Source: Elusimicrobiota bacterium
GTDB taxonomy: Bacteria > Elusimicrobiota > Elusimicrobia > UBA1565
Direction of reading: 5' to 3'
DNA length: 64,000 nucleotides
Assembly: GCA_041661185.1 (NCBI GenBank)
Contig: JBAZUV010000004.1
Location: forward strand, 9,987 to 73,986
This document shows, in pieces, positions 23,347-57,665 of this stretch (its first letter is position 1; each line of letters opens with the position of its first letter). The notes below the pieces were generated by a model that was given only the letters and a program-made list of their open reading frames with translations, did no database searches and was not told the DNA's origin. A program made the position numbers and the translations under genes.

Positions 23347-23470
23347 CGTCATCCCGGCGAAAACCGGGACCCAGCCATCCGTCTCCCCGGCGAAAGCCGG
23401 GGTCCAGCTGATCCTAGATCCCGGCTTCCGCCGGGATGACGGCCTTACCGGCTCTCGCCGGAATGACGGG
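23347..23470. repeat. GC-rich GNRA-hairpin cluster 4
   Basis: gtcatcccggcgaaaaccgggacccag, ccccggcgaaagccggggtccag, ccggcttccgccgggatgac, ctctcgccggaatgac. Confidence 0.6.
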
Positions 23471-24537: not shown

Positions 24538-24582
24538 TCTTCCCCCCTATCCAACGCGTACGATACAAAAAAATCAACACGC

Positions 24583-24645
24583 CGTCATCCCGGCGGAAGC
24601 CGGGACCCAGCAGTTGCCTGGACCCCGGCTTTCGCCGGGGTGACG
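24583..24645. repeat. GC-rich GNRA-hairpin cluster 5 (inverted pair)
   Basis: gtcatcccggcggaagccgggacccag-cagttgc-ctggaccccggctttcgccggggtgac. Confidence 0.6.
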
Positions 24646-24658
24646 ATGACGCGCCGCA

Positions 24659-27813: not shown

Positions 27814-27934
27814 GCGGAAACTCTTTCCATAAAATCGTTCATGCGCCCGATAGAAGCCTCGCGCAAAATTGTGCCTCGCTCATCCAACTGAAACCACTCA
27901 ACGTTCCTCTTTCCTATTCAATGGTCCCACAAAG

Positions 27935-27963
27935 GTTGTAGCATCCGCGCGCGACATTTTCAA
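27935..27963 (-). promoter_or_regulatory. Candidate sigma70-type promoter for the histidine-kinase/hybrid-kinase/LuxR operon
   Basis: On the minus strand TTGAAA-17 nt-TACAAC sits ~115 nt upstream of the ATG at 27813. The match is weak and unverified. Confidence 0.2.
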
Positions 27964-27976
27964 TGCCCGGCCGGTT

Positions 27977-28028
27977 ACAAAAAAACCGGAGGATTGGATG
28001 TTGCAATTCGCAACATCCAATCCTCCGG
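27977..28028 (-). terminator. Rho-independent terminator of the CheY-like gene
   Basis: A 19-bp perfect stem (ccggaggattggatgttgc / gcaacatccaatcctccgg, 5-nt loop) is immediately followed on the transcribed strand by UUUUUUU (plus-strand A-run 27979-27985), ~15 nt after the stop. Confidence 0.75.
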
Positions 28029-28042
28029 AGAGAAGAGAGGGT

Positions 28043-28423
28043 TCAGCCCCTTCCGCGCGCAAGCAGCTGCCTTATGCGCACGGTCAACTCCTGCAGGTCG
28101 AAAGGCTTGGTGATGTACTCGTCGGCCCCGAGCTGAAAGCCCTGCGTCTTCTCCTCGGCGGAGAGGAAGCGGCCTGTCATCATGATGAGGATGGTTTCGC
28201 GAGAGTCCTTGCGCAGGGTCTGGAGTATCTGGAAACCACTGGAATCCGGCAGCTGGATGTCCATGATGACGACCTTCGGATCATGCTTCTTGGCCGCGTC
28301 GATGCCGTCCTTGGCGTTGCCGGCCTGGACGCAGTCGAAGCCTTCCATCTCCAGGACCTCGGCCAGACTTTCGCTCAGGTGGGCGTCGTCGTCGATGATC
28401 AGCAGCTTGGTGGGGGCATTCAT
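28043..28423 (-). CDS. Single-domain response regulator (CheY-like receiver)
   Basis: LLIIDDDAHL, VVIMDIQLPDSSG, MMTGR, DEYITKP. Confidence 0.85.
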   Translation of the reverse strand: MNAPTKLLIIDDDAHLSESLAEVLEMEGFDCVQAGNAKDGIDAAKKHDPKVVIMDIQLPDSSGFQILQTLRKDSRETILIMMTGRFLSAEEKTQGFQLGADEYITKPFDLQELTVRIRQLLARGRG

Positions 28424-28424
28424 G

Positions 28425-29231
28425 TCACACCTCGGAGCCGGGCGGAATGAGTTTATAGCCGACGCAGGGCACGGTCGTGATGAGGTCCGCGGCCTTGCCC
28501 AGCTTCTCGCGCAGGCGCCGCACGTGGACGTCCACGGTGCGCGGCGAGCCGAAGTAATTGTAGCCCCAGACGCGCTCGATGAGATAGGGCCGGCTGAGCA
28601 CGCGGTTGGGCGAACTCAGGAAGACGTAGAGCAGGTCGAGCTCCTTGGAAGTCAGCGGCACGTTCTTGCCGTTGACCTTGAGCGTGTAGCTCGTCAGGTT
28701 CAACTCGATGGGCCCCATGCGGATGATCTCTTCCTGGGGCTTGGTCATGACGCGGCTCAAGACGGCCTTGACGCGGGCCAGGCACTCGGCCACGTCCTGA
28801 TCGAGCGAGAGGCACTCATCGGCCCCGGCTTGGAAGAAGGCCAGGCGCACCGAAGTCTTCGAGGCCCCGCCGGAGGCCGGCGTGAACGGCGTGCCGCGTC
28901 CGGCCGCGCCGGCGGAACCGTAGGCCGGCAGGCGCCGCACGAGCACCGGCTCCGAGCCCGAGTATTGAGAGGGCGCGGGGTCCACGAGCGCCACGATGGG
29001 GAGCTGGCGCGTGGGACCGCGAGAACGCAAGGTCTTGACTAAGGCGAGGCCGTCCTCGTCGGCAAGGGTCTGTCCCACCAGCAGCATGTCGCAGCCGCGC
29101 TGGGCCAACAGTCCATGGACCTCTTTGGCCCTCTGGACCACGGTGAGCACGTAGCCGTTGCGTCCGAGAGCCTCCAGAAGCACGCCGACGCGATTAGGAT
29201 CGCGCGCGACGCAGACGATGCTTACACGCAT
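28425..29231 (-). CDS. OmpR-family winged-helix regulator with degenerate (pseudo-)receiver
   Basis: The C-terminus has an OmpR-type wHTH (LTSKELDLLYVFLSSPNRVLSRPYLIERVWG...RTVDVHVRRLREKL). The N-terminal receiver-like fold lacks the acidic pair (VCVARDP) and has Gly at the phospho-site (MLLVGQTLADEDG), with a Gly/Ala-rich linker. Confidence 0.8.
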   Translation of the reverse strand: MRVSIVCVARDPNRVGVLLEALGRNGYVLTVVQRAKEVHGLLAQRGCDMLLVGQTLADEDGLALVKTLRSRGPTRQLPIVALVDPAPSQYSGSEPVLVRRLPAYGSAGAAGRGTPFTPASGGASKTSVRLAFFQAGADECLSLDQDVAECLARVKAVLSRVMTKPQEEIIRMGPIELNLTSYTLKVNGKNVPLTSKELDLLYVFLSSPNRVLSRPYLIERVWGYNYFGSPRTVDVHVRRLREKLGKAADLITTVPCVGYKLIPPGSEV

Positions 29232-33472: not shown

Positions 33473-34684
33473 CTAGGATAGCGCGGAAGATTTCTTGGGC
33501 TCGAAGAGGATGAGGGTGCGCCTCAACTCCCCCTCCTCTTCGAGATGAACGGCGCGCACATGGCAGGCTTCCTGGCGGAACATCGTGTCCGTCTCCACGA
33601 CCTGGTTGGGCCTATCGAGCGCCACGCCGACCAATCGCAGCACGTCCTGCTGCTGACTGTCGATGACGTCCAGCAGGTGCAGGCGCGCATTCGGGTCGAC
33701 GGACGAGGTCACCGGGAAATTGGTGTAGAGCACGGTATTGTCCTCGTCGACTACGATGGCCCGGTGCGCCTTGGTCACGATGGTCGTCAGGATAGACTGC
33801 CACCAGCGCTGCTCGGCCACGCCCCGCTGCTTCTCGCGGACCATGGTATTGGCGCGGTCGGCCTTCACCTTCTGAAGGAACACGCCGAGCACGCCGGCCA
33901 AATCCCCGATCTCGTCCTTGCGCGGAGAGAACTTGATGTCCAGGTTCTTGAAAGAGATCGCCTCCACCGCGTCGCGCAGGTGCAGGAGCGGATTGACCAC
34001 GAAATGGTGCAGGAAAAAATAGAGCGGGATGCCCAGGAGGAAGAGCACGCCGATGGCGCCCAGCACATACTTGCGCATGGCCTGCGCGATCAAGTCCTTG
34101 ACCCCCTCGCGGGAGACCTGCATGTCCACGATGCCCATGACCTCGCCCCGCACGGCCAAGGGGATCGCGATCTCATAGAGCGGCTGGCCCGGCACGTTGC
34201 GGACCTTCGGGAGCTTGGAGAGATAGGCCTGCTCCACCGCGTCGGTGGGCAGCGGCAGGGCCTTGGTGAACTCATCGAAGGTCTTGCCGATGTAGCCCGG
34301 GTCCTTGAACCAGCGCACCTCGCCGTAGCGGTTGAAGTAGACCAAGGCCGCCACGCGCTCGTCTCGCGAGAGGCTTTCGCTGACGATCTGAAACTCCTCC
34401 ATCTTGATCGAGCTCTGGCGCTCGCTCAAGCCCCGGATGAGCTGATAGGCCTGCACCTTGACCAGGTCGATGGCCTCCTGCTTGAGCTTCTCGTCGAAAG
34501 TCCACTTGAAAAGGTTGTAGTAGAAGATCCCGCCCAGGAACATCACGTAGACGCCGATGGACAGATACCACAAGAACCACTTGGTGGAGAGCCTCACTGC
34601 GCTCCCCCGTAGGTCTGGTCGATCCTCTGCAGGCCCGCGGAACAGTCGGAGTTGGTGGGATCGAACTGAACGCAGAGCCTCCAC
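33473..34684 (-). CDS. Membrane sensor protein with extracytoplasmic domain, HAMP and C-terminal PAS-like domain (no output domain)
   Basis: TM1 is WFLWYLSIGVYVMFLGGIFYY and TM2 is YVLGAIGVLFLLGIPLYFFL; HAMP is LHLRDAVEAISFKNLDIKFSPRKDEIGDLAGVLGVFLQKV. The ORF start overlaps the TPR gene by 90 nt, so the true start is probably internal. Confidence 0.65.
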   Translation of the reverse strand: MEALRSVRSHQLRLFRGPAEDRPDLRGSAVRLSTKWFLWYLSIGVYVMFLGGIFYYNLFKWTFDEKLKQEAIDLVKVQAYQLIRGLSERQSSIKMEEFQIVSESLSRDERVAALVYFNRYGEVRWFKDPGYIGKTFDEFTKALPLPTDAVEQAYLSKLPKVRNVPGQPLYEIAIPLAVRGEVMGIVDMQVSREGVKDLIAQAMRKYVLGAIGVLFLLGIPLYFFLHHFVVNPLLHLRDAVEAISFKNLDIKFSPRKDEIGDLAGVLGVFLQKVKADRANTMVREKQRGVAEQRWWQSILTTIVTKAHRAIVVDEDNTVLYTNFPVTSSVDPNARLHLLDVIDSQQQDVLRLVGVALDRPNQVVETDTMFRQEACHVRAVHLEEEGELRRTLILFEPKKSSALS

Positions 34685-35946
34685 TCATCGCGCGCCTTGG
34701 CGTAGTCGTTGCGCTGATAGGCCACCAGGCCCTGCTGCCAGTGCCGGACCGCGTTCTTCTTGTTCTCGTCGGCCGCGGTCCCCGCGCCCTGGACCTGGAC
34801 ATCGCCGGGAGCGCTCGCCGCGGCGGCCTCGGCCTTGGCCTTATCCGCCTCCTCCTGCTTCTTGCGCTCCTCTTCATCCTTCTTGCGCTGCTCCTCCTCC
34901 TCGGCGTCCCGCTTGGCCTGCTCGGCCTTGCGGCGGCGGGCCTCCGACTCCCTCTGCATCTGCTCCTTGGCGCGAGCGATGAGCACGTTGGCGCGCCGAG
35001 GGTCATAGCCGTAGTCCACGGCCTTATTCCAAGAGTCCACGGCCTGCTTGTACTGCCGCTCCTTATATTGATTGCGGCCCTCGGCCACGTGCTGGCTGGC
35101 GATCTCCAGACGGATCTCGTTGATGAGCTTCTGGGCCTTGGCCTCGCCGGGCTCGATGCGCAGGACCTCATCGAGCAATTTAAGCGCGGAGGCGCTCTGC
35201 CCCTGCCCGTAGAGGGCGAGGGCCTGCTGAAGCTTGTCGTTGGCCTCCTGCCTGCGCAGCTCGGACTCGACGCGCGCGATAGTCCCCATCAGGCGCGGGT
35301 ATTTCGGATTGAGCACCAGCGCCGAATACCACTGATCGAGGGACTCGCGCAGACGGTGCAGCTGGTAGGCGCGCTGTCCGCGGCGGAAGTGCTCATCGGC
35401 CAGCTCGCCGCGCGCCTTCCTGAGCCAATAGCGGGCCTTGAGGTTCCCGGGAGAGAGCTTCGTGGCCTCCTCCCAGCGCTGGGTCGCCTCGACCAAGCGT
35501 CCCTGGCGATAGAGCGTCATTCCTTCCTCGAAGCGGTCCTCGACCAAGCGCCGCTCGGAGAGCCCGGGCTTGGGAGCCCCGTCGAGCTCCACGGAGGCGC
35601 GGTGCAGGATGGCCGCATCCTGAAAGCCGGGATCCATGGACAGGATCTTGGCGGTCAGCTCCCGGGAGCCGTCGAAGTCTCCCTCCTTGTAGAGGTCATA
35701 GGCGTTCTCATAGACCGTGCGCAGGAGCCTGTGCATCATGCGCGACTTCTCAAGCTGGATGGTGTAGAGGTATTTCTTCTTGGCCTCATGCGAGGAAAGC
35801 GTGCCCAGCTGAGTCTTGGAAAAATCCAGGAACAGGCCTTCGAGGGTCGGGGCCTTCTCCTCGTCCGGCTTGGCCGCGGCCGGCCGCGCGAAGACCGCCG
35901 GCCAAGCCAGCAGCATTGCGAGCCCCAACCGTTTCATCCAGGCCAT
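34594..35946 (-). CDS. Secreted TPR-repeat protein with Lys/Glu-rich coiled-coil tail (TadD-like candidate)
   Basis: Signal peptide MAWMKRLGLAMLLAWPAVFARPAAA, multiple TPR units (AIARYWLRKA..., ALALYGQGQSASALKLLDEVLRIEPGEA), and KKDEEERKKQEEADKAKAE. Confidence 0.75.
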   Translation of the reverse strand: MAWMKRLGLAMLLAWPAVFARPAAAKPDEEKAPTLEGLFLDFSKTQLGTLSSHEAKKKYLYTIQLEKSRMMHRLLRTVYENAYDLYKEGDFDGSRELTAKILSMDPGFQDAAILHRASVELDGAPKPGLSERRLVEDRFEEGMTLYRQGRLVEATQRWEEATKLSPGNLKARYWLRKARGELADEHFRRGQRAYQLHRLRESLDQWYSALVLNPKYPRLMGTIARVESELRRQEANDKLQQALALYGQGQSASALKLLDEVLRIEPGEAKAQKLINEIRLEIASQHVAEGRNQYKERQYKQAVDSWNKAVDYGYDPRRANVLIARAKEQMQRESEARRRKAEQAKRDAEEEEQRKKDEEERKKQEEADKAKAEAAAASAPGDVQVQGAGTAADENKKNAVRHWQQGLVAYQRNDYAKARDEWRLCVQFDPTNSDCSAGLQRIDQTYGGAQ

Positions 35947-36839
35947 TAGAAACCCATCCCTCCTTTCTTGAAGATGTTGAGGACCATCGGGCTGAGCATG
36001 AGGATGAAGACCGTGGGGAAGATGAAGAAGAATATGGGGATGAGCATCTTGGTGGAGGCCTGCGCGGCCGCCTTCTCCGCGTTATTGAGCCGCCGAAAGC
36101 GCATGTCCGAGGAGAAGTTCCGCAAGAGGTCCACCAGGCTCGTACCCAGTTCGTCGGACTGGATGATGAGCCCCACGAAGGAGCGCACGTCCTGCAGGCC
36201 CGTGCGCATGGCCAGCCTGCGCAGAGCGTCGCGGCGGGAATAGCCGAGTCCGACCTCGCTGATGGCGCGCTCGACCTCGCGCTCGAGCTCCGTCTTCTTG
36301 ATGGCGACCGAGATGATGCGGTCGAAAGCGGTCATGTAGTCCAGCCCGGACTCGATGGTGAGCGCGGCTAGGTCGACCAAAGAAGGGAAGTTGCGCAGGA
36401 TCTCTCTCTGGCGCTCCTGGATGCGGCCCTTGAAATAGAAATCCGGCATGTAGAAGGCCACGGGCGCGGCGAGGACGCCCAAGAACACGCTCTCGGACAT
36501 GAAGTAGACGAAGCCCGCCGCCACTACGCAGCAGAGCTCCTTGTAGTGGAGTATCTGCAAGGCATTGGGCTTCTCCGGCTTGCCCAAGAGCATGTGCAGG
36601 TTCTCCAGCCGCGCGCCCATCTTGGCCTGATGCACGAGGAAGAAGTCCAGGCGCTCCAGGAGCCCGCCCTGGGGATTGAGCTTCTCGAAAGGAGAGACGT
36701 CCCCCTCCCGCTTGCCCGCGATGCGCGCCAGCGAGTCCGCGTCCTCCTCGGGAGAGGAGAACATCCGCTGCACCAGGGTGAAGACGGCCATGGACCCCAG
36801 GAAGCCGATGATGAGCAGCAATATCTGCATCAGTGCCAT
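35946..36839 (-). CDS. tadC: Tad pilus inner-membrane platform protein TadC (T2SSF family)
   Basis: 297 aa with the T2SSF domain pattern (LDFFLVHQAKMGARLEN..., SLVDLAALTIESGLDYMTAFDRI) and N- and C-terminal TM helices. Confidence 0.8.
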   Translation of the reverse strand: MALMQILLLIIGFLGSMAVFTLVQRMFSSPEEDADSLARIAGKREGDVSPFEKLNPQGGLLERLDFFLVHQAKMGARLENLHMLLGKPEKPNALQILHYKELCCVVAAGFVYFMSESVFLGVLAAPVAFYMPDFYFKGRIQERQREILRNFPSLVDLAALTIESGLDYMTAFDRIISVAIKKTELEREVERAISEVGLGYSRRDALRRLAMRTGLQDVRSFVGLIIQSDELGTSLVDLLRNFSSDMRFRRLNNAEKAAAQASTKMLIPIFFFIFPTVFILMLSPMVLNIFKKGGMGF

Positions 36840-36840
36840 A

Positions 36841-38364
36841 TCAAACCTGGATGTCCGCGAGCTTGCGGACGACCCCCATGCCGATCGACATCCACACCGC
36901 GCAGAAGCCGATGGTGATGACGCCGATGACGCTGAAATAGTAGGCGTTCATGACCTCGGGCTGGAAGGCCCACATGAGCCCCATCATGGCCCAAGGCATG
37001 ATGCCCACGACCACGGCCTGGATGCGCTGCTGCGCGGTCAAGGACTGCGCCTTCTCCTCGAGCTTGCCCTCGTCGCGGATGTTCTCCACGATGCGGTCGA
37101 AGAGCTTGGTGAGGTTTCCTCCCACCGCGCGCTGGATGATGACGGCCTTGATGAGATAGGAGAGCAGGCGGCTGGCGATGCGCTCCTCCATGCCGAGCAG
37201 GGCCTTCTCGAAGGGCGTGCCGAGCTGGTAGTTCTTGAGCACGAGTCCGAACTCCTCGGAGATGGGAGGCACGAGATCGCGCTGGACGAGCTCGAAGCCC
37301 TGCACGATGTCCAAGCCCGACTTGAGCGCGTTGGACATGAGGATCATGGCGTCCATGAGCTGGGCCTCGACGCGCTTGCCTCGGCGCAGCCTCAGCGTAT
37401 TGAGTATCCATTCCGGCGCCTTGATCCCCAGATAGACGCCCGCGCAGGAGAAGATCATGAACCCGAAAATATTGAACGAAAGCACCCCGAGCATCAAGCC
37501 CACGATCATGGGCGTGAGGATGAGGTACTGGACCTTCATGGCCATGAACTGGCGGTTGAATTCATTGGCCCAATGCTTCGCCTTCTGCGCATGCTGCTCA
37601 AAGAGCCCGTAGACCGCGTCGGACTTGGCCTGTCCGTAGAGCCAGCCTGCCAGGAAAACGAACAGAGAGCCCAGCATCATGAGGAAGAGTATCCCGCCCT
37701 GGGAAGCCGGCGCGTCCTTGCCCGGAGGATTGAAGCCGCGCGGAGAACTGCGCAGGATCTGAAAGGCCTGGTTGGTGAGCGTGCCTACGGCCATCACGGA
37801 TTCCTGATAGCGCCGGGCGTCCTGGCTGGTCAGGGCGTCCAAGACGGATTCCATCTCGCGCAGGATGAGATCGTAGACGGCCAGGAGCGCGCGGCCGCGG
37901 CCGCCCAGGGAATCTCCCAGCTTCGCGCGGTAGAGACGGTCCAGCGACATCTGGAAGCGGATGCGGCTGTCCTCATAGTCCTTGACCAGCGCGCCCGGCG
38001 GGGTGAGCTGGCCGTTGAACTCCGGCGGGAAGGTCTTGCGCGTGTGCTCGAAGAACTCATAGAGCACCGAGACCGGCGCCTGCCAAAGCTGGGCCTCGTT
38101 GAGCACTCCCTCGTCGGGATCCTGCCAGACAGGCCGGCTGACCATGGCCTCCAGGATGCCGTCGATCCACGCCGGAACCTGGAGGTTCGGGTCCCGGTCC
38201 TTCTTGAAATAGTGGTAGATGTACTGGGCGCGCGCCTCGGCCCCGTTGTCGGAGTTGACCAGATAGTCGATCTGCTTCTTGCTGAACTGCGCGCACGCCG
38301 GCGCGGGCGCCAGCGCCGCCAAAAGCCCCGCCAGCACAAAGAAGCAGGCCGCCTGGGGATACAT
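36841..38364 (-). CDS. tadB: TadB-like T2SSF platform protein with ~330-aa N-terminal signal peptide + periplasmic extension
   Basis: The start is reassigned to the ATG at 38364 (MYPQAACFFVLAGLLAALAPAPACAQ), because the ORF upstream of it translates hairpin repeats. The C-terminal 180 aa carry T2SSF motifs (SNALKSGLDIVQGFELV..., QRAVGGNLTKLFDRIVENIRD). Confidence 0.75.
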   Translation of the reverse strand: MYPQAACFFVLAGLLAALAPAPACAQFSKKQIDYLVNSDNGAEARAQYIYHYFKKDRDPNLQVPAWIDGILEAMVSRPVWQDPDEGVLNEAQLWQAPVSVLYEFFEHTRKTFPPEFNGQLTPPGALVKDYEDSRIRFQMSLDRLYRAKLGDSLGGRGRALLAVYDLILREMESVLDALTSQDARRYQESVMAVGTLTNQAFQILRSSPRGFNPPGKDAPASQGGILFLMMLGSLFVFLAGWLYGQAKSDAVYGLFEQHAQKAKHWANEFNRQFMAMKVQYLILTPMIVGLMLGVLSFNIFGFMIFSCAGVYLGIKAPEWILNTLRLRRGKRVEAQLMDAMILMSNALKSGLDIVQGFELVQRDLVPPISEEFGLVLKNYQLGTPFEKALLGMEERIASRLLSYLIKAVIIQRAVGGNLTKLFDRIVENIRDEGKLEEKAQSLTAQQRIQAVVVGIMPWAMMGLMWAFQPEVMNAYYFSVIGVITIGFCAVWMSIGMGVVRKLADIQV

Positions 38365-38382: not shown

Positions 38383-38490
38383 CGTCACCCCGGGCTTGAC
38401 CCGGGGGCCAGGAGCACGGCCAAACGACTTCCCCTGGATCCCGGCTTCCGCCGGGATGACGAATTTATGGGCTTTCGCCGGGATGACGAG
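38383..38490. repeat. GC-rich hairpin cluster 6
   Basis: gtcaccccgggcttgacccggggg, ctggatcccggcttccgccgggatgac, gggctttcgccgggatgac. Confidence 0.6.
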
Positions 38491-38515: not shown

Positions 38516-40897
38516 TCAAAGCGCATTGCGGGCCTCGTATTGCGCGTACTCCGGATGCTTCTTGAAGAGCTCGGGCGGGATGTTGAGCCCGGCCAGGCGG
38601 AACTCCTCGTAGAACTTCGGCGGCTTTCCGCAGCCGCTGAAGAAGCCCTGGGTCTTCCCGTCGGCATCGACGCCCGTGGCCACGTATCGGAACAAGTCGT
38701 TGGTGAGGATGGTGTTCTGGTCGCGGCCCGTGACCTCCGTGACCCAGGTGCAGCGGCGCTTGCCGTCCGGGAAGCGGGTGATCTGCACGACCAAGTGCAC
38801 GGCGGAAGCGATCATCTCGCGCAGGGCCCAGATAGGCAGGTCCGCGGAAGCCATCATGCACATGGCCTCCAAGCGCGTGAGCGCGTCGCGCGGGCTGTTG
38901 GCGTGGATGGTGGCCAAGGAGCCTTCATGGCCGGTGTTCATGGCCTGGAGCATGTCCAAGGCCTCGGAACCGCGGCACTCGCCGACGACGATGCGGTCCG
39001 GACGCATGCGCAGGCAGTTCTTGACCAGGTCGCGGATGGTGACCTCGCCCTTGCCCTCGATGTTGGGCGGGCGGCTCTCCAGCCGGATCCAGTGCTCCTG
39101 CAGAAGCTTGAGCTCCGCGGTGTCCTCGACGGTGATGATGCGCTCGTCCTCCGGGATGGAGGAGGAGAGCATGTTCAGGAAAGTGGTCTTTCCGGTGCCG
39201 GTTCCGCCGGAGATGATGATGCTCTTGCGCACGCGCACGCAGGCCTGCATGAAATCCAGGAGCTCCTCGTTGACGGAGCCGAAGCGGATAAGGTCCTTGC
39301 CGGAGAACGGGGTCTTGGAGAAGCGCCGGATGGTGAGCGTGGGACCGCTGACCGCCAGGGGCGGGATGATGGCGTTGACGCGAGAGCCGTCCTTCAAGCG
39401 AGCGTCGACCAGCGGCACCGACTCGTCGATGCGCCGTCCGATGGGCGCCACGATGCGCTTGATGACCTGGATGATCTGCTCGTCGTCGCGAAAGCGCAGC
39501 GAGGTCAAGACCAGCTTGCCGCCCCGTTCGATATAGACCTTGTCCGGGGCATTGACCATGATCTCGTTGACCGCGCTGTCGCGCATGAGCTCTTCGAGCG
39601 GGCCCAAACCCAGTATCTCGTCGAGGAGTTCGGCCACGAAGCGCTGGCGCAGGTCGCGAGAGAGCGGGAGGTTGGCCTCCTTCTGCAGAAGGCTCTCGAT
39701 GATGGCCGCGATCTTCTGGCGGACCTCCGCATTGCGCTCGTCGGAGTCGCTGATGCGGATGCGCTCGGTCTCCATGGCCGCCACCACGTGGCCGTGCATC
39801 TTCATCTTGAGCTCGTCCCAGAAGGCCGGCAGGTCCGTGGGCCGCGCGATAGGCTTGGCCTTGGCTTCGCCGCCCGGGCCGGCCATGGAAGAGGCCGTGG
39901 GTTTCCAGAGCAGGTTCGAGCCCTCGGAGAACTCATGCTCCTCCACCGCGGAGTGGCCCCAGGCCTTGGGACCCGAAGGGGTTTCCAGCATCTTGCCCAA
40001 GAGCGGGCGCAAGGCCTTGGCCCAGTCCGAATGCGGCTGCTCCACGACGAGGATGCGCCCCGTGTTCGCGAACTCGGGCAGAAGGTCTTCCCACGGCATG
40101 TAGGAAAGGACCCGCTTGTTCATGTTCGCGAAGAAGCGGTCGACTTCCTTGGGCGCCAGGGCGCCGGGCAGGTTCGCCTCGTTGAGCACGACCTCGAAGC
40201 GCTCCAAGGGGAAGTGCAGGGCCTTGAACTCCTGGAAGAGCGCGTAGGTGGACTCGAAGTGCCCGCGCTGAGGCAGGCAGGTCCAGAACACCAGGTCCGC
40301 CAGGTCGAAGGAGAAGACCTGCATCGGGAAATAGGGGTCCACGTCCAGGAAGAGGTCGTAGGACTGCGAAAGGCTCTCCAGGATGGGCACGATCACGTGC
40401 GGGGAGGTCTGCAGGACCTCCGAGCGCTTGCTTCCCAAGGGGAGCACGCCCACTCCCCACTGGGAGAGCGGGATGCGGCCCTTGAGCAGCTTGCTGAGCA
40501 CGGCCACGTCCTTGCCCACGAACTGCGTCAGGCTGGCCAAGGTCGGAGGCTGGAGCCCAAGCTGAAAGGAAAGGTCCGAGCGGCAAAGAGGGTCGAGCTG
40601 GACGATGAGCACGTTGCGGCTCTGCGTCCCGGCCCAAGCCAGGGCGAGATTGAGCGCGATGGAGGACTTCCCGACGCCTTCCTTGGGACCGGAGAACACC
40701 ACCACTCGGCCCGAGGACCGCGGCGTGGAGCCGGTCAGAGTCTTCGGCGCCGGAACCGTCGGAAACGGCGTGCCCGCAGAGGCCGGAGGAGCGGGGAAAG
40801 ACACGAGCTCCCCAGCCGGCGCCGGCGGCGTGGGCCTTTTCCCGGGGCCCGTGGGGAGCCCCGGAGTGCCGATGAACGGCGGAAGGTCGCTGGCCAT
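38516..40897 (-). CDS. Fused CpaE/TadZ-like (MinD/ParA-fold) domain + CpaF/TadA secretion ATPase
   Basis: The N-terminal ~330 aa carry a deviant Walker A (VVFSGPKEGVGKSSIALNLA) typical of CpaE. The C-terminal ~450 aa are CpaF (GGTGTGKTT, VTVEDTAELKL, VGECRGSEALDML, GHEGSLATIHAN). Confidence 0.85.
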   Translation of the reverse strand: MASDLPPFIGTPGLPTGPGKRPTPPAPAGELVSFPAPPASAGTPFPTVPAPKTLTGSTPRSSGRVVVFSGPKEGVGKSSIALNLALAWAGTQSRNVLIVQLDPLCRSDLSFQLGLQPPTLASLTQFVGKDVAVLSKLLKGRIPLSQWGVGVLPLGSKRSEVLQTSPHVIVPILESLSQSYDLFLDVDPYFPMQVFSFDLADLVFWTCLPQRGHFESTYALFQEFKALHFPLERFEVVLNEANLPGALAPKEVDRFFANMNKRVLSYMPWEDLLPEFANTGRILVVEQPHSDWAKALRPLLGKMLETPSGPKAWGHSAVEEHEFSEGSNLLWKPTASSMAGPGGEAKAKPIARPTDLPAFWDELKMKMHGHVVAAMETERIRISDSDERNAEVRQKIAAIIESLLQKEANLPLSRDLRQRFVAELLDEILGLGPLEELMRDSAVNEIMVNAPDKVYIERGGKLVLTSLRFRDDEQIIQVIKRIVAPIGRRIDESVPLVDARLKDGSRVNAIIPPLAVSGPTLTIRRFSKTPFSGKDLIRFGSVNEELLDFMQACVRVRKSIIISGGTGTGKTTFLNMLSSSIPEDERIITVEDTAELKLLQEHWIRLESRPPNIEGKGEVTIRDLVKNCLRMRPDRIVVGECRGSEALDMLQAMNTGHEGSLATIHANSPRDALTRLEAMCMMASADLPIWALREMIASAVHLVVQITRFPDGKRRCTWVTEVTGRDQNTILTNDLFRYVATGVDADGKTQGFFSGCGKPPKFYEEFRLAGLNIPPELFKKHPEYAQYEARNAL

Positions 40898-41762: not shown

Positions 41763-42518
41763 CTATCTAAATAGTCTCCTGAAGCTCGCCATCTCCAAGG
41801 GGTGCATCTCAACATCCCCCAGGCCGCGCAGGATCACCGTGATGTCTCCCTGCTTCATGGCCAGAGAGAGATACTGCGCCTCCACCGCGTTGAGCGCCAC
41901 GCTCAGGATGCCCTTTTCCGCGAAAGCCGCCGACTGTTCGTCCTTCTTCTCTTTGTCCGCGAAATCCTTGGCCGCCATCCCCTGTCCGAGATTGCTGCCC
42001 ACGCCCAGCACGAGCGTGTTCTGCAGGATGGTGGCCGTGACCTTCTCCTTGCGGTTGTCGGCCATGAGCGCGTCGAAGGTCACCATCACGTCCACGCGGT
42101 CGCCGGGCTTGATGAGCTTGAGGAGCTCGTTCTCCACCGGGATGACGGCCCCGCGGTAGCCGGAGGGGATCTTCACGCTCAGTCCCGTGGTGGGCGAGAG
42201 CGGCGTGACGATCGAATGCGAGAGCTGGTTGCCCTTGGGAATGCGCACGCGCGTGACCAAGTTCGTGATCAGCTCGATGTCCGAGGGCGTCTTGACCTCG
42301 AAGGAATCCTGCGCCATGTATTTGCGCGGGATCTGCATGCCCTGCACGAGGTCCTTCTTAAGGAGAGTGCGCTCGGGCAAGTCCACGCGGGCCACGAGCA
42401 CCGTGGTGTTCTCGTGCGACTTGGCCAGCTGCTTCTCACGGCTGGTCAGGACCAGCAGGTAGAGAGCCGCGGCCGCCACGGCCAGGACCAGAGGGATCAG
42501 GACGCTCTTTTTTTCCAT
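41763..42518 (-). CDS. cpaB: Flp pilus assembly protein CpaB/RcpC (SAF-domain)
   Basis: 251 aa with an N-terminal TM anchor and CpaB-like beta-rich domains (VLVARVDLPERTLLKKDLV..., GDRVDVMVT). Confidence 0.8.
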   Translation of the reverse strand: MEKKSVLIPLVLAVAAAALYLLVLTSREKQLAKSHENTTVLVARVDLPERTLLKKDLVQGMQIPRKYMAQDSFEVKTPSDIELITNLVTRVRIPKGNQLSHSIVTPLSPTTGLSVKIPSGYRGAVIPVENELLKLIKPGDRVDVMVTFDALMADNRKEKVTATILQNTLVLGVGSNLGQGMAAKDFADKEKKDEQSAAFAEKGILSVALNAVEAQYLSLAMKQGDITVILRGLGDVEMHPLEMASFRRLFR

Positions 42519-42555: not shown

Positions 42556-43050
42556 CTATTTGAAAAGCGGCCGTTCTATCGGCATCCTTACGATGGCCCG
42601 CAAAAGCCTCGCCTTCTTTCCCGGCTGATCGGCCAAGACCACTCCCGTCATCGGGAAGACCATGGGCACCACGCGCCGGACCTCGACCTGCACGTCGTAG
42701 TTCATGCAGCCTTCCTGCGGATCCAGGAGCGTCGGGATCGGACCCTGGACCGATGCGAACGCCGGCGTCGGCGCCTTGAACATCTGAGCCACCACCTGCT
42801 GGGCCTTGGCCGGATCGAGCGAGGGCACCGCGCAGGAGGCCGAAGGCGTGCTTTTCGCCGTCAAAGAAGCGATGCGCGCGGCCTCGTAGGCCGCATGGTG
42901 GAGGAGGATGGTCTGGAAAGCCAGGAACCCGATCTCCATGATCATGAACATCAGGAACAGGAAGATCGGCAAGATGAGCAGGACCTCCACGAGCACCTGC
43001 CCCTCCTGCGCGCCCGAAAACTTCGGCGCGCGAACCGATCTCCAGACCAC
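42556..43050 (-). CDS. TadE/TadF-like pseudopilin
   Basis: TadE N-terminal motif GQVLVEVLLILPIFLFLMFMIMEIGF. The start is reassigned to the GTG at 43050, preceded by AGGAGGAGGGG; the ORF upstream of it overlaps flp in another frame. Confidence 0.6.
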   Translation of the reverse strand: MVWRSVRAPKFSGAQEGQVLVEVLLILPIFLFLMFMIMEIGFLAFQTILLHHAAYEAARIASLTAKSTPSASCAVPSLDPAKAQQVVAQMFKAPTPAFASVQGPIPTLLDPQEGCMNYDVQVEVRRVVPMVFPMTGVVLADQPGKKARLLRAIVRMPIERPLFK

Positions 43051-43100
43051 CCCCCTCCTCCTGCCGCCGGCGCTTCGTCCGGCGGACTGACGCCTTGCTG

Positions 43101-43292
43101 TTAGTTCGGCGATCCGACCGTGCTGGCGGCTCCGGAGATCATCTGCATGATCTGGTTGAAGATGCCGCTGATCTGCGGCTTGAACATCTTGCCGATCACG
43201 AGGATGACGCCCACGATGACGGCCAGCATCATCAGATACTCCACCGTGTTCTGGCCGCGCTTGCTGCGAAGGAACTCCTTCCATTTCTTCAT
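43101..43292 (-). CDS. flp: Flp-family type IVb pilin (flp-1)
   Basis: 63 aa; MKKWKEFLRSKRG|QNTVEYLMMLAVIVGVILVIG has a prepilin-peptidase G|Q site and a TVEY hydrophobic core. An SD-like AAAGGGGAG lies upstream. Confidence 0.8.
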   Translation of the reverse strand: MKKWKEFLRSKRGQNTVEYLMMLAVIVGVILVIGKMFKPQISGIFNQIMQMISGAASTVGSPN

Positions 43293-43413: not shown

Positions 43414-43569
43414 CTAAAAGTACGCAGTCAGAATCGCGATGCCGGCATTCGTGAACAGCCGCTTCGTCTGGCCCTGCAAGATCCGGTAGAGCGTGGTGAA
43501 GATGAACAAAAGCATCACGGTCATGAGCAGGTATTCCACCAGCGCCTGTCCGCGTCGTCGACGATGCAT
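43414..43569 (-). CDS. flp: Second Flp-family pilin (flp-2), 51 aa, below the ORF-track cutoff
   Basis: Hand translation gives MHRRRRG|QALVEYLLMTVMLLFIFTTLYRILQGQTKRLFTNAGIAILTAYF*, from the ATG at 43569 to the TAG at 43416-43414. It has the Flp G|Q-x-x-VEY motif. Confidence 0.7.
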   Translation of the reverse strand: MHRRRRGQALVEYLLMTVMLLFIFTTLYRILQGQTKRLFTNAGIAILTAYF

Positions 43570-43587: not shown

Positions 43588-44568
43588 TCAGAATTTCACC
43601 TTGAGAGACAGCATGTCCGCCGTCCCCAAAGCGCCCATCGAAACCAGCGAATAATCGAAAGCGATGCCGTAGCCGAAGGCCTGCGCGGTATAGAGTCCGA
43701 TGCCGAAGCTCCAGCGCGGGGACCCGATCAAGGGATACATGAAGCTGCGGTCTTTCTCCATGACCTGCCCCATGTCGTCGGCGTTATAGAAGCCCGCGCG
43801 CAATTGGACCTGCCCGATCTGCAGAAGGTCTTCCGGCAAGGTGAATTCCGCGCCGGCTCCCAGCCGCGCGGAGTTGTCGCTGGCCTTGCTGATCTCTCCG
43901 GTCAGGGTCAAGAGCTCCAGTATCCGGCCCGAGGCGCCGACGCGGGTGACGGAGGCGACCTTCGCGGTCCCGGCGCCGATGTTCTGGACGGAGGCGCCCA
44001 AGGTCCAGCCCTGGGCCGGACGCAGGAGCAAGCCCGCGTCGCCCACCACGGAGCTGCGCGCGGAGCCCGCGTTGTCCTCGTGCACGCCCTTGGCGCTGAC
44101 GCCCAGGAAGAGCCGCTCATACCAGAAGGAGCGCGCGAGGCTCAAGGTCGCGAAGCCGTTCTGCACGCGGATATCCGAGGAATCCATGGGACGCCCCTGG
44201 TCGTCGCGCGCATCGAACCCGTCCACGGACATGTAGGCGACGTTGGCTCCCGCCACGGTGCGGCCGAAAGGATGGGCATAGCCCATGTAGAAGGGAGAAT
44301 CGATCTCCTGGACATACCGGTAATAGGAGTAGACGAACTCCTTCTGCTGGGCCAAGGCCAAGCCCGCGGGATTCCAAGTCAGGGCGTCGGCGCCCTCGGC
44401 CAAGGACACATAGGCCCGGCCCAAGGCCATGGCGCGCGCGCTGCCCAGGCCCAGCTTCATGAAATTGGCTCCGCCCGTGCCCGCGGAAGAGTCGATAGCG
44501 GCCGCAGGAGCAGCGGCCGCGAAAGCCAGAACGCATGCCATCGCCGCGCCGCTCATCTTCGTTCTCAT
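43588..44568 (-). CDS. Outer-membrane beta-barrel protein (PorV/PorP-SprF/TraF-like N-terminal motif)
   Basis: 326 aa with signal peptide MRTKMSGAAMACVLAFAAAAPAAA, the motif GLGSARAMALGRAYVSLAEGADALTWNPAGLA, alternating beta-strands and a C-terminal Phe. Its start overlaps the upstream gene's stop (ATGA). Confidence 0.65.
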   Translation of the reverse strand: MRTKMSGAAMACVLAFAAAAPAAAIDSSAGTGGANFMKLGLGSARAMALGRAYVSLAEGADALTWNPAGLALAQQKEFVYSYYRYVQEIDSPFYMGYAHPFGRTVAGANVAYMSVDGFDARDDQGRPMDSSDIRVQNGFATLSLARSFWYERLFLGVSAKGVHEDNAGSARSSVVGDAGLLLRPAQGWTLGASVQNIGAGTAKVASVTRVGASGRILELLTLTGEISKASDNSARLGAGAEFTLPEDLLQIGQVQLRAGFYNADDMGQVMEKDRSFMYPLIGSPRWSFGIGLYTAQAFGYGIAFDYSLVSMGALGTADMLSLKVKF

Positions 44569-47500
44569 GGGATGAGCACCTTGCGCACGACCTGCAGGGG
44601 CGTCTTTTCTCCGCGGTTGGGCTCCTCACGGATGAGCACGAAGTACACGCCGGGCGCCACGGTCCGGCCGGCGCTGTTGGTCTTCGTCCAGACATAATCC
44701 ACATAAGTGTCCGAGGCCTGCACGCCGAAGTCCCGGCTGAAGACGACCTCGCCGGAGAGCGTGTAGATCTTCATCGTGACCTTGGACTGGACCGGCACGT
44801 AGATGTGCGTGCTCATGCTCGTTCCGCGCACGGGGTTCGGATAAAGGATCGTATTGTTGGCGAAGTCCGCCTCGGGATCGACCGAACCGCTGCGCACCAC
44901 CGGGACCTCCGCGATGATGAGGTCCTCGGCCAGGGACGCTCCCAAGCCCACCCCGCCGGAGATGCTGTCGATGGCCCGGATATCGGTGGAGGCCACGATC
45001 TTGAAGAGATAGTTGCCGTCCGGCACGATGGTCAGCCGTTCGTCGGTCCCGTCCCAGATATCCGTGATCTCCGTGCGCGCGGGCCGCACGCCAATGATGC
45101 GCTTGACCAAGCTCTGCGACTCCGGAGGCGTGGCATTGCCGTTGCGGTCGAAATTCGTCCCGGGTTTATAGATTTTGATGCCCACCTTCATGGTCTCGGA
45201 GACCTGATAGGCGATGAGCGCGGTGCCCGCGTCCGGCCGCAAGGGGCTGACCGCCACATCATAGACCCGCAAGGGGTTGGCTGAGATGGTCATCTGCGCC
45301 GTGGAACCCGAGGAGAGCACGGAAGCCAAGTCCTCGGCGATGGCCTGCACGGTATAGAAGCCCGGGCTCACGAAGTTCCCGGAATCATCGCGCGCATCCC
45401 AGAACTCGCGGTTGACGATGCCGGCGTCGCGCACCTGCCCCAAGACCAGGGTCCTGACCACCTGCGGCGAGATGGACGTGCTCAGTATCTGGATGGTGAC
45501 CGAGGACTGCCGGGTCAGGGAGTATTCCACCTGATAAGGAGGCAGCGAAATGGTCTGGCTGGAATTGAAGAGCGTGGGGACCGTGGGAGTGACGTTGAAG
45601 ATCGGGAACACGATGGAGCCGCGCGCGACGGTCACATTGCCCACGATCTGGTCCGTGGCGAAGTAGCGGGGCGTGGTCGTGGACTGCGCCGCCAGCACGA
45701 ACACATAGGTCCCGTCCGGCACAAAGAGGCCGTTGTGGTCGCGTCCGTCCCAGAACTCCGTGATCTTCATGCGTCCGGGCCGCATGCCCTTGATGACGAC
45801 CAAGGGAGTGGTCGGAGAACCGTTGCTGGTGACCTGCGCGCAGGCGCCGGGCTCGATGCTGCGGCACGGCGGCCATGTCGCCGTCGAGCCCGTGATCACG
45901 GTCCCGGGAGGATAGAGGCTCCAAGCCGCCTGCATGGGCTGGGAGAGCTGGTAGCTGATGGTGACCACGTCCGTGGACCCGGTCAAAAGCGGGGTCACGA
46001 CCACGTCCGTGATGCGAAAGAGATTGACCGAGAAGAGCGCGGTCACCGTCGAGACCTTGGACGGCACGAAAGGATCCGCGGCGGTCAGCTGCGCCAGATA
46101 GGTGCCGGAAGTCACCCAGAGCCCGCGGTCGTCGATGGGGATGTTCCAGCGGTCGCGGTTGGCGAAGTTCGCGGGCCTCGATTCATTGGCCACGAGGGTC
46201 TTGACCAGATTGATCCCGGTCTCGTCGTAGATCTTGAGATTGACGACGGCGTCGCGCGAAAGCGTGTAGCCGAAAGTAAAGGGGTCCAGGCCGGCTACGG
46301 AGGGCGAGGAGCCGATGACCGTGGAGGAAGGCCCCACCTGGCTGATGGTGACCATGCCGCGGCTGACCGTGATGAAGCCGCTTCGCGCGTTCGTAGACCA
46401 GATGCGCTGATCAGCAGGGTTCCCATTGAAGGAATAGCCGTTCTGTGAAGGCAGGGAGGCATACAGGACGAAGACATAGTCCCCATCCGGCAGGATATTG
46501 CCTGCGGTATCGCGGCCGTCCCAGATGCTGAGCACGCTCTTGCGAGAATCCTTCTGCTCCTCAATATGCCGCAACAGCGTCGTGGAAGGACCGAAGTTCT
46601 TAGGCACAACCCCCGCAAGATCTCCGAGAGAATTGACGCTATTGAGCCCCTGAGTGAACTCCGTGCCTGGAGCATAGATATCAATATAAACCGTGGCCGG
46701 TTCCGTGATCTGGTAGCTCAGCACCGCCAGGGAGGTGGAAAGGTCCATGAGCGGCTGGACCCGGATATCCGTGATCTGCAAGGTATCTAAGGAAATCTGC
46801 CGGGTGGCTGCCGCTCCCAGATCGAAGCCGAACTGATCTCGCACCATGGGCTGCAAGGTCGCCAAATACACGCCCGGAGGAGCCAAGTCCCCGTTATCCC
46901 AACGCCCGTTCCAAGAGTCCCCATTCTGCAGGCTCCCGTTCGGAACGCCTTCGCCCACGCGAGGAATCCCCGGAACTACGGTACGGATGACGGGGAAACT
47001 CAAGGCCGGATTCGCGGTATTATGGATAGTGAGATACATGGTGGCGTCTTTGGAGAGCCGGTAGGTCAGGTTATAGGGCTCTGCGGCCACGCCCGTAAGC
47101 TCGCCCACGACCGTGGGCGTGGAACGAACCACATGGACATTCGCCACGTCCATGGTGATAGGCGCTTGGTCTACGAATATTCCATTTGCTCCGGTATCGT
47201 CGCAATTCCCCGCGCTATCCAAAGCTTTGGTCGCGCCTGAAGGATACGCCCGAGTCTGCGTGATATTGATGTTCCCGCTGGCCCCGGTTTGGTTCGTGGC
47301 AACGGTCCCGCGGAACCCGAACTGCCCGTTCGTTTTTCCAAACTCACCCAAAATGTTATAGGCCCCGTCCCAAAGCACGCAGGTCGTGGGTACTGCCGCG
47401 TCGGCGGCGGGGTTGTCCGAGTTCGTATCCCCTGGAATGATGCCGGGGTTATCAACAAAAAAAGTACGGATCGGCGGCGCGGATTGCGGATCAAGAGGAT

Positions 47501-47963
47501 TGGTGCCTTGAGCGAATTTGAATATCTCGAAATTGATGTAATCGAGGGCGATGTCCGTGTCAGCAGTGGTCGTGCTTTGGTTGTTGTTCCAGCCCACCTT
47601 GAGGCACAAGAATATCTCCTTGTTGCAGACGTTCCAGACATCGTCTGATTCAGGAAAATTGGGACTGCTGGAGCACGTCGCAGACACCGCCTGATCGAAC
47701 TCGATGCGCGGATCATTGGAGATGTCGCCGTGGTTGGGACAGCGCGCCGTAGGAGTGCAGGTGAATCTCCCGGTCGCGGTAGTAAATGTGCAGACATCTG
47801 GACGAGCAACGAATATCTTCTTGATGAAGATCTGCTGCGCCATTGCCGGACCGGCTGCCGCGAAGAAGAACGCCGCGGCCAGCGCGGCCAAGCGCGCGCC
47901 GACGGAGAAACAACTCCCTCGCCTAAAAGACAGGAGCGCTCCCGGCTCTGCAGGGCTCATCAT
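44565..47963 (-). CDS. ~1130-aa secreted multi-repeat protein: multiple FlgD-Ig-like repeats and a T9SS-type (Por_Secre_tail-like) C-terminal domain
   Basis: Signal peptide starts at the MM codons at 47963 (MMSPAEPGALLSFRRGSCFSVGARLAALAAAFFFAAAGPAMA). The repeat motifs are WDGRDTAGNILPDGDYVFVL, WDGRDHNGLFVPDGTYVFVL, WDARDDSGNFVSPGFYTV and WDGTDERLTIVPDGNYLFKI. The C-terminus reads LYPNPVRGTSMSTHIY...MKIYTLSGEVV...PGVYFVLIREE...KVLIP. Confidence 0.75.
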   Translation of the reverse strand: MMSPAEPGALLSFRRGSCFSVGARLAALAAAFFFAAAGPAMAQQIFIKKIFVARPDVCTFTTATGRFTCTPTARCPNHGDISNDPRIEFDQAVSATCSSSPNFPESDDVWNVCNKEIFLCLKVGWNNNQSTTTADTDIALDYINFEIFKFAQGTNPLDPQSAPPIRTFFVDNPGIIPGDTNSDNPAADAAVPTTCVLWDGAYNILGEFGKTNGQFGFRGTVATNQTGASGNINITQTRAYPSGATKALDSAGNCDDTGANGIFVDQAPITMDVANVHVVRSTPTVVGELTGVAAEPYNLTYRLSKDATMYLTIHNTANPALSFPVIRTVVPGIPRVGEGVPNGSLQNGDSWNGRWDNGDLAPPGVYLATLQPMVRDQFGFDLGAAATRQISLDTLQITDIRVQPLMDLSTSLAVLSYQITEPATVYIDIYAPGTEFTQGLNSVNSLGDLAGVVPKNFGPSTTLLRHIEEQKDSRKSVLSIWDGRDTAGNILPDGDYVFVLYASLPSQNGYSFNGNPADQRIWSTNARSGFITVSRGMVTISQVGPSSTVIGSSPSVAGLDPFTFGYTLSRDAVVNLKIYDETGINLVKTLVANESRPANFANRDRWNIPIDDRGLWVTSGTYLAQLTAADPFVPSKVSTVTALFSVNLFRITDVVVTPLLTGSTDVVTISYQLSQPMQAAWSLYPPGTVITGSTATWPPCRSIEPGACAQVTSNGSPTTPLVVIKGMRPGRMKITEFWDGRDHNGLFVPDGTYVFVLAAQSTTTPRYFATDQIVGNVTVARGSIVFPIFNVTPTVPTLFNSSQTISLPPYQVEYSLTRQSSVTIQILSTSISPQVVRTLVLGQVRDAGIVNREFWDARDDSGNFVSPGFYTVQAIAEDLASVLSSGSTAQMTISANPLRVYDVAVSPLRPDAGTALIAYQVSETMKVGIKIYKPGTNFDRNGNATPPESQSLVKRIIGVRPARTEITDIWDGTDERLTIVPDGNYLFKIVASTDIRAIDSISGGVGLGASLAEDLIIAEVPVVRSGSVDPEADFANNTILYPNPVRGTSMSTHIYVPVQSKVTMKIYTLSGEVVFSRDFGVQASDTYVDYVWTKTNSAGRTVAPGVYFVLIREEPNRGEKTPLQVVRKVLIP

Positions 47964-48176
47964 GACACAGGTTCTACGCACACAAGAGAGTTTAATATCA
48001 GCCCTTTTCTGATTTGTTGATTCGCTGTTAAAAAGATGTTGCGCCGGCCCGTTCCTGAGGCCTGTCTGAATAATGGTATCAGCGCTCATAGGCTCGGGCA
48101 TGGGCCCTTCTGCTCACCCCTCCCCCGCCATAGGACCCACCAGAACCTAGGACCAAAGACTATCTGGTGCCTATCT

Positions 48177-57556: not shown

Positions 57557-57665
57557 TCGTCATCCCGGCGAAAGCCGGGACCCAGGGACTGCCGTTCTGC
57601 CGTGATCCTGGATTCCGGCTTCCGCCGGAATGACGGCTGTAGGCTTCAGCCGGAATGACGTAACG
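57557..57665. repeat. GC-rich GNRA-hairpin cluster 7, flanked by fragments of the GGTGCCAGG palindromic family (57533-57551, 57680-57697)
   Basis: gtcatcccggcgaaagccgggacccagg, ctggattccggcttccgccggaatgac, cttcagccggaatgac. Nearby lie ttgacgccaggcgtcaa and gtgacgcctggcacc. Confidence 0.6.

Follow-up and report, generated by a model that had tools for sequence, protein, structure and literature searches.

In canonical tad loci, such as those of Aggregatibacter, Caulobacter and Pseudomonas, the ParA/MinD-fold protein TadZ (CpaE) and the motor ATPase TadA (CpaF) are separate proteins, encoded in the order secretin-tadZ-tadA-tadB-tadC. In a 64,000-nucleotide stretch of an Elusimicrobiota bacterium genome (assembly GCA_041661185.1, contig JBAZUV010000004.1, positions 9,987 to 73,986 of the forward strand; hereafter the window), a single open reading frame (ORF) of a tad locus appears to carry the same two functions, which raises the question of whether the two proteins are truly joined in this organism and what the N-terminal part would do for the motor. 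Our analysis makes it likely that TadZ and TadA (CpaE and CpaF) are genuinely joined in this gene, in a vertically conserved fusion of the TadZA kind, and that the gene is the only one for a cytoplasmic ATPase in this Flp/Tad pilus locus of an Elusimicrobiota bacterium.

The ORF occupies window positions 38516-40897 on the minus strand and runs uninterrupted from ATG to stop, encoding 793 residues. A hidden Markov model domain scan with Pfam found PF01656 (CobQ/CobB/MinD/ParA, CbiA; residues 67-279, 28.8 bits, just over the cutoff of 25.4) and PF00437 (T2SSE; residues 430-709, 221.7 bits) in this one polypeptide. A preliminary description, made from the sequence alone, had placed a MinD/ParA-type domain with a deviant Walker A in frame with a complete CpaF/TadA ATPase, and the ORF, the Pfam scan and the Foldseek structure search confirm this. 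The motifs quoted in that description are present in the minus-strand product, namely FSGPKEGVGKSS at residues 68-79, GGTGTGKTT at residues 564-572 and TGHEGSLATIHAN at residues 655-667. The GC content of the window is ~64%, and long open frames are present on both strands. The plus-strand translation of 38516-40897 is stop-free as well; it contains none of the quoted motifs and was rejected as a shadow frame of the sort usual at 64% GC.

The ATG of the fused gene (40897) lies 15 nt past the stop of the secretin gene. A public JGI call of the identical protein (P0001, 729 residues) begins at GTG/Val65, within the first β-strand region (window 40705-40897). Since Arg64, just ahead of the JGI start, is kept in 110 of 117 sequences, the longer start is favored.

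An alignment with 116 full-length homologs and a full-length AlphaFold2 model (57 sequences) were used to draw a four-part anatomy. A leader (residues 1-61) that varies in length and sequence among homologs is followed by a compact α/β ATPase domain (residues 62-305), in which identity to the query is 52-87% per 20-residue block, then by a linker (residues 306-359) and finally by the motor (residues 360-793), composed of an N-terminal helical bundle, an N-terminal domain and a RecA-like C-terminal domain. The ATPase domain had been put at ~330 residues in the preliminary description and is in fact shorter (~245 residues), the ~360 residues ahead of CpaF including the 61-residue leader and the 54-residue linker. 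Block identity is 52-97% in both domains versus 29-39% in the linker, which is predicted to be disordered; judging by these conservation profiles, both domains are under purifying selection. Within the linker, P308, K311, W313, W331, P357 and F359 are near-invariant. A model of the N-domain only, built from a 14-sequence alignment, had a mean predicted local distance difference test score (pLDDT) of 57.9 and was dropped from the fold search, the N-domain being better modeled in the full-length protein.

The best Foldseek matches of the full-length model in the PDB were CpaF/TadA structures (8rjf_A, 9e24_A and 8rkd_A; E 1e-41 to 1e-42), to which the motor is 42-44% identical. Because these structures align over 414-437 columns, including the N-terminal helical region and the N-terminal domain, the motor module is complete. 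The best NCBIfam TadA match, TIGR03819 (TadA family conjugal transfer-associated ATPase), reached 335.2 bits and missed its cutoff of 373.15; this shortfall counts little against membership of the CpaF family, as the model describes another TadA subfamily. Membership of CpaF/TadA is also indicated by the company of the gene, whose neighbors include the TadB/TadC platform genes and the genes for a secretin, RcpC and Flp pilins. On the minus strand, the order is two flp genes, tadE, rcpC, secretin, the fusion, tadB, tadC and a tetratricopeptide repeat (TPR) gene, and the fused gene fills the usual tadZ + tadA slot, directly after the secretin and ahead of tadB/tadC. Among the large ORFs of the 64-kb window, we found no separate tadZ/cpaE, no second ParA-like gene and no A24 prepilin peptidase. 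Another Elusimicrobiota genome (L003, 66% identity) has an identical gene order across the entire tad locus.

Some relatives of the motor have a different architecture. Three proteins of ~1150 residues (P0019, P0020 and P0024) match the CpaF half of the query only, and P0019, the one that was scanned, has three T2SSE ATPase stretches per chain, which amounts to a covalent trimer of CpaF-like motors; two such chains would give a hexamer.

A missed stop or a frameshift joining separate tadZ and tadA genes, introduced by assembly or sequencing, would give the same picture in a single genome. A protein search over 5.8 billion clusters returned >100 full-length relatives with 62-85% identity, nearly all carrying PF01656 and PF00437; those with names are mostly Elusimicrobia or Elusimicrobiota, and this architecture is thus shared by >100 clusters from different samples. 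A scan of species-representative genomes with a profile of the N-domain gave 214 matching stretches, the best 80 of which were checked for an in-frame fusion; nearly all of these 80 are from metagenome-assembled genomes titled Elusimicrobia or Elusimicrobiota, and a few are titled just "bacterium". At 65 of the 80 loci, each from an independent genome, the N-domain and the Walker A and His box of CpaF are all read in one frame before a stop is met, 13 more reach the contig end stop-free, and two are interrupted. The gene is therefore fused in frame at 65 of the 67 species-level loci readable to a stop codon, which excludes the missed stop or frameshift that the preliminary description had raised.

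The two interrupted loci speak for an artifact, as does the variation in annotation, the public call of the identical protein starting 64 residues downstream. In one of them, the complete genome CP096137.1 (L042), a one-base frame change occurs at ~4860-4895 within the GC-rich, low-complexity linker (GGCGGCGGAGGGGAGGAGG), with no obvious restart; in the other (L077), the frame changes inside CpaF. Both look like indels or recent pseudogenization, not like a designed two-gene arrangement. The frame change of L042 could be an indel introduced in assembly or a natural division of the gene right at the linker; the CpaF frame lacks an obvious start after the shift, for which a 1-nt indel is a better explanation than a designed split. 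Given the genomes that read through and the number of clusters sharing the architecture, we regard the artifact explanation as effectively refuted.

The fused architecture was also found well outside the close family of the window protein. Distant fused proteins from Myxococcota, Omnitrophota and other Elusimicrobiota have 22-28% identity to it in the N-domain and 49-61% in CpaF, and an outlying Elusimicrobiota member (P0130) has 37% in the N-domain. The linkers of the fused proteins that were compared measure 35-76 residues and are unrelated in sequence. When an alignment of the distant fused proteins was used for the search, the top matches were all fused (120 of 120; 705-763 residues), and those named among them include a second Elusimicrobiota clade, many Omnitrophota, and Myxococcota. 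A complete Omnitrophota genome has the gene order RcpC, secretin, fusion, and a Myxococcota metagenome-assembled genome the order A24 peptidase, 62-residue ORF, RcpC, secretin, fusion, T2SSF, so that the Omnitrophota and Myxococcota fusions both sit in the tadZ + tadA slot. A large Elusimicrobiota lineage has the fused architecture by default, and it is common in Omnitrophota and Myxococcota. The departure from canonical tad loci on which the preliminary description had remarked is thus not unusual, being the norm in this lineage, common in these two phyla and present in Bdellovibrio as TadZA.

The fusion itself is not new, as a TadZ-TadA fusion named TadZA is already known from a study of Bdellovibrio bacteriovorus (bioRxiv 10.64898/2026.07.08.737194), a preprint that also cites an earlier prediction of the fusion. 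According to that work, TadZA consists of a TadZ region with a Walker-A-like motif, a flexible linker and TadA; its gene is in the main tad locus and adjoins tadB, and neither tadZA nor other core tad genes could be deleted, from which the authors conclude that they are essential. TadZA localizes dynamically, and its TadZ region plus linker is both required and sufficient for binding the polarity hub RomR (bioRxiv 10.64898/2026.07.08.737194). Compared by description, the layout is that of the window protein, a single polypeptide with a TadZ-like region, a flexible linker and TadA, but the window protein comes from Elusimicrobiota and its Walker A reads GPKEGVGK instead of K/RGGXGXS/T. What is added here is scale, together with a phylogenetically distant and very widespread member. 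No link of Elusimicrobia with Tad or CpaF was found in the literature searched, and when a CpaE-CpaF fusion was sought in papers on the Myxococcus Kil system, the eLife paper was found to make no mention of CpaE or TadZ.

We then asked what kind of domain the motor is fused to. Across 117 sequences, the motif F[ST]GPKEGVGK[ST]T scarcely varies, and conservation extends to D102 and to the LF[LI]DVDP stretch of the Walker B (D185, D187). Lys72, Lys77, Ser/Thr78-79, Asp102 and Asp185/187 are kept at 94-100%, and position 108 holds Asp in 93 of the sequences and Glu in the other 24. Because the Walker A, switch Asp and Walker B residues are conserved, the N-domain would be a nucleotide-binding domain and not a decayed remnant. 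Like canonical TadZ/CpaE, it has a ParA/MinD fold, and its Walker A is deviant; it differs from the canonical pair by the covalent joining to the motor, and the atypical N-terminal receiver of canonical TadZ/CpaE is replaced by the disordered, Pro-rich leader.

Relatives of the N-domain were collected by searching 1.84 billion representative proteins in full with HMMER. Next after the tight family came proteins of 700-760 residues matched from their first residues, of which all 10 tested were CbiA/ParA + T2SSE fusions, and many proteins of 380-430 residues in which the match starts only at residue ~125-160. A match from that point onward corresponds to the way canonical TadZ/CpaE is laid out, receiver-like domain first and ATPase domain second, and P0159, the sole one of these proteins scanned in full, does have a receiver. 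Those of the shorter proteins that have names belong to Chloroflexota and Anaerolineae and are listed as "pilus assembly protein CpaE", "response regulator" or "AAA family ATPase". Judged by sequence similarity, the nearest unfused relatives of the N-domain appear to be these CpaE-type receiver + ATPase proteins. Within the best 150 matches, the near-complete ones were mostly fused proteins or CpaE-type receiver + ATPase proteins, along with ~30 short ParA/MinD-like proteins, eight of which were scanned and all fell under the curated MinD cutoffs.

Several observations weigh against equating the N-domain with TadZ. The receiver-like N-terminal domain is absent, and only the 61-residue leader precedes the ATPase fold. 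When the family profile of the N-domain was compared with solved structures, FleN/FlhG matched best (E 3e-8), followed by MinD (E 5e-6), and ParA was also matched; TadZ of Eubacterium rectale (3FKQ) was matched weakly (E 6e-3) and was outranked by FleN and MinD. Foldseek likewise aligned the N-domain with FleN (8p53_A; E 5e-11, TMt 0.72). FlhG/FleN and MinD share the deviant Walker A and the signature lysine with the N-domain, but unlike it they are standalone proteins with flagellar or division partners, outside tad loci. The N-domain motif K72-E-G-V-G-K-S78 deviates from K/RGGXGXS/T, the TadZ Walker-A-like consensus as quoted in the Bdellovibrio preprint (bioRxiv 10.64898/2026.07.08.737194), in that an invariant Glu73 takes the place of the first Gly; the rest agrees. 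NCBIfam sets the N-domain apart from MinD too, with only weak MinD and ParA matches on the N-terminal part (MinD 23 bits, far under the curated cutoff of 201.75); its sole CpaE/TadZ-specific model is the actinobacterial Ssd model, whose cutoff was not reached, so that this library does not decide membership. In the AlphaFold2 full-length model (predicted template modeling score 0.46), the packing of the two domains against each other was not confident.

The N-domain family also occurs outside the tad context (P0121, P0123, P0126 = L002 and P0128 = L001). Its GPKEG-type ParA/MinD domain stands alone in relatives of ~250 residues, in one case with a response-regulator gene after it, follows TPR repeats in P0121 (822 residues) and is fused to a Ser/Thr protein kinase in P0123 (1014 residues). 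Because the module has standalone relatives and is also combined with TPR repeats and a Ser/Thr kinase, it is not exclusive to pilus motors. In a rough neighbor-joining tree of the ATPase domains, which has no support values and compares sequences at ~25% identity, the receiver-containing proteins cluster together, and the receiver-less fused and standalone forms fall outside this CpaE-like cluster in two groups. We take this placement as a hint only and make no claim for one versus several fusion events.

These observations could mean that the N-module is not an equivalent of TadZ/CpaE at all and is instead a FlhG/MinD-like domain that was acquired independently and acts as a nucleotide-dependent switch or membrane tether, regulating the motor (for example on/off, or extension versus retraction) without being a localization factor. 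The FleN and MinD matches, the missing receiver and the position of the receiver-less forms in the tree would all fit such an origin, and the company of TPR repeats, a kinase and a neighboring response regulator elsewhere suggests a general switch module. On the other hand, the near-complete matches within the best 150 are mostly fused or of the CpaE type, the domain sits in the tadZ slot of its operon, and the tree that favors a separate origin is unsupported at ~25% identity. We therefore consider an independently acquired switch improbable, with a chance that is small without being negligible. Far less likely still is an N-domain that is catalytically dead, has no nucleotide-dependent function and serves only structure, as a spacer or an oligomerization handle. 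The invariant Glu73 in place of the Gly of the KGG motif could be taken as a sign of this, and, to our knowledge, canonical TadZ itself has little or no measurable ATPase activity, but the conservation of the lysines, Ser/Thr residues and aspartates listed above, with position 108 restricted to Asp or Glu, would be unexpected for a dead domain. The TadZ-like identity proposed in the preliminary description is supported with qualifications: the tad slot and the CpaE-type relatives speak for it, and the absence of a receiver and the better match of FleN/MinD structures than of TadZ 3FKQ detract from it.

If the protein is a TadZ-TadA fusion, as we favor, its C-terminal ~430 residues would, by homology to solved CpaF, form a hexameric motor beneath the TadB/TadC platform and drive extension and retraction of the Flp pilus, with every motor subunit bearing a ParA/MinD-fold domain on a flexible tether of ~55 residues. 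Since its two lysines (signature and P-loop), its switch aspartates and its Walker B are kept, this N-domain would most likely bind ATP and might form ATP-dependent dimers. It would likely do the job of TadZ/CpaE in cis, so that the motor is delivered to, or retained at, the assembly site in a 1:1 ratio. The fixed 1:1 stoichiometry of the preliminary description does follow from the fusion, and the polar-localization function that it attached to the N-domain is a presumed one. The six tethered N-domains may pair as ATP-sandwich dimers or make a peripheral ring round the motor.

A comparable arrangement may exist in the archaellum, where FlaH, an accessory ATP-binding protein, is associated with FlaI, a CpaF-like hexameric motor that Foldseek recovered as a clear structural relative of the C-terminal module. 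Unlike the two halves of the window protein, FlaH and FlaI are separate proteins, and FlaH is RecA/KaiC-like, not ParA/MinD-like. A cryo-electron tomography preprint on Caulobacter did not place CpaE in the machine and speculated, on the analogy of FlaH/FlaI, that CpaE, perhaps with PodJ and PleC, is the outer cytoplasmic ring around the CpaF ring. Because the fusion is recurrent and conserved, TadZ/CpaE would be expected to act physically next to the CpaF motor, with a stoichiometry of 1:1. The fused proteins thus offer a natural "Rosetta stone" suggesting that TadZ/CpaE works beside the motor, which bears on the outer cytoplasmic ring in Caulobacter.

More tentatively, the receiver-less TadZ-like domains fused to TadA may be an old lineage separate from the receiver-containing CpaE/TadZ proteins, spanning Elusimicrobiota, Omnitrophota, Myxococcota and probably Bdellovibrionota. 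The GPKEG family would then be a divergent branch of it, the Trp-containing linker motif would be a docking site, and the recurrence of the fusion would be Rosetta-stone evidence for a peripheral ring of TadZ/CpaE on the CpaF hexamer. We regard this combined proposal as possible and rather doubtful; if true, it would answer the question of the position of CpaE left by the Caulobacter tomography work. The fused proteins are convenient single-chain targets for cryo-electron microscopy of the TadZ-TadA complex, and the receiver-less GPKEG variant and the conserved linker motif are further points of use. In annotation, the current labels "TadA", "CpaF" and even "MinD" conceal the second domain.

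Table 1 Parts of the fused gene and genes of the surrounding tad locus, in window coordinates.
Feature	Position	Strand	Basis
Whole fused gene (tadZA-type), 793 residues + stop	38516..40897	-	Single ORF; Pfam CbiA + T2SSE; 116 full-length homologs
Leader, Pro-rich, predicted disordered, residues 1-61	40715..40897	-	pLDDT 40-47; identity 5-11%, gaps 44-88% among homologs
ParA/MinD-fold (TadZ-like) ATPase domain, receiver-less, residues 62-305	39983..40714	-	PF01656; pLDDT mostly 70-90
Deviant Walker A FSGPKEGVGKSS, residues 68-79	40661..40696	-	Signature Lys72, P-loop Lys77
Flexible linker, residues 306-359	39821..39982	-	29-39% identity per block; pLDDT <50 at 316-318, 323-354
Complete CpaF/TadA motor + stop codon, residues 360-793	38516..39820	-	PF00437; Foldseek CpaF/TadA matches
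Motor Walker A GGTGTGKTT, residues 564-572	39182..39208	-	G564-T571 invariant in 57 sequences, T572 nearly so
Motor His box TGHEGSLATIHAN, residues 655-667	38897..38935	-	T655 G656 H657 E658 G659 S660 T663 H665 N667 invariant
Secretin (RcpA/CpaC-like), 268 residues	40913..41719	-	PF00263 140 bits, residues 106-268
RcpC/CpaB	41763..42518	-	PF16976 55 bits
TadE-like pseudopilin	42556..43284	-	PF07811 at residues 95-137
Flp-type pilin, 63 residues (KRGQNTVEYLMMLAVIV)	43101..43292	-	Translation; syntenic small gene in L003
Second Flp-type pilin, 51 residues (RRGQALVEYLLMTVML)	43414..43569	-	Translation; syntenic small gene in L003
TadB-like platform protein, ~507 residues from internal Met	36841..38364	-	PF00482 at residues 342-464
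TadC-like platform protein	35946..36839	-	PF00482 51 bits
TPR protein with signal peptide, TadD-like position	34594..35946	-	TPR families; syntenic in L003

The other genes of the locus are listed with the parts of the fusion in Table 1. The 63-residue pilin is assigned to the Flp type by the G/xxxEY motif of Flp pilins. Because the listed tadE ORF overlaps this flp gene, its true start is probably internal.

The secretin of the locus is short, consisting of the Pfam core (residues 106-268) and ~100 further residues, and the syntenic gene of L003 encodes 248 residues. The secretins beside the fused ATPase in Omnitrophota and Myxococcota measure 522 and 481 residues and have extra N-domains; that of the window looks like a minimal secretin. 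The TadB-like protein is unusually long, with a signal-peptide-like start (MYPQAACFFVLAGLLAALAPAPACAQ) and ~300 residues without a Pfam match before the T2SSF domain, and its ortholog in L003 has 502 residues. This extra region may be periplasmic, perhaps offsetting the short secretin.

Directly upstream of the flp genes lies a gene for a 326-residue protein without a Pfam match (43588-44568, minus strand), next to one for a 1178-residue protein (44565-48101, minus strand) with FlgD-Ig domains and below-cutoff matches to CHU_C/type 9 secretion system-type sorting tails. The tad locus of L003 is preceded by a matching pair of 1142 and 321 residues, and the pair may serve the tad locus as a conserved accessory or be its cargo. 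Downstream of the locus, window positions 23860-29231 (minus strand) encode two response regulators, one OmpR-type and one LuxR-type, together with a dCache-HAMP histidine kinase and a hybrid receiver-kinase. In L003, comparable genes come after the tad locus (OmpR-type regulator, receiver, dCache kinase and hybrid kinase), which suggests that the regulatory neighborhood is conserved.

A dispersed, partly palindromic repeat resembling repetitive extragenic palindromic elements (GTCATCCCGGCGRAAGCC) is present in 16 copies in the window, versus 0.01 expected. It is often paired on opposite strands, and the interval from the fused gene to tadB has two copies. The sites are 38443-38487 and 14 more, for example 774-866, 21297-21653, 23348-23467, 24584-24644 and 57559-57659. 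Two giant ORFs were also found on the minus strand of the window: one of 2405 residues (4451-11668) with ClpB-like double AAA+ modules and a C-terminal M48 peptidase domain, and one of 2093 residues (15804-22085) with an S8 subtilase domain and HEAT repeats.

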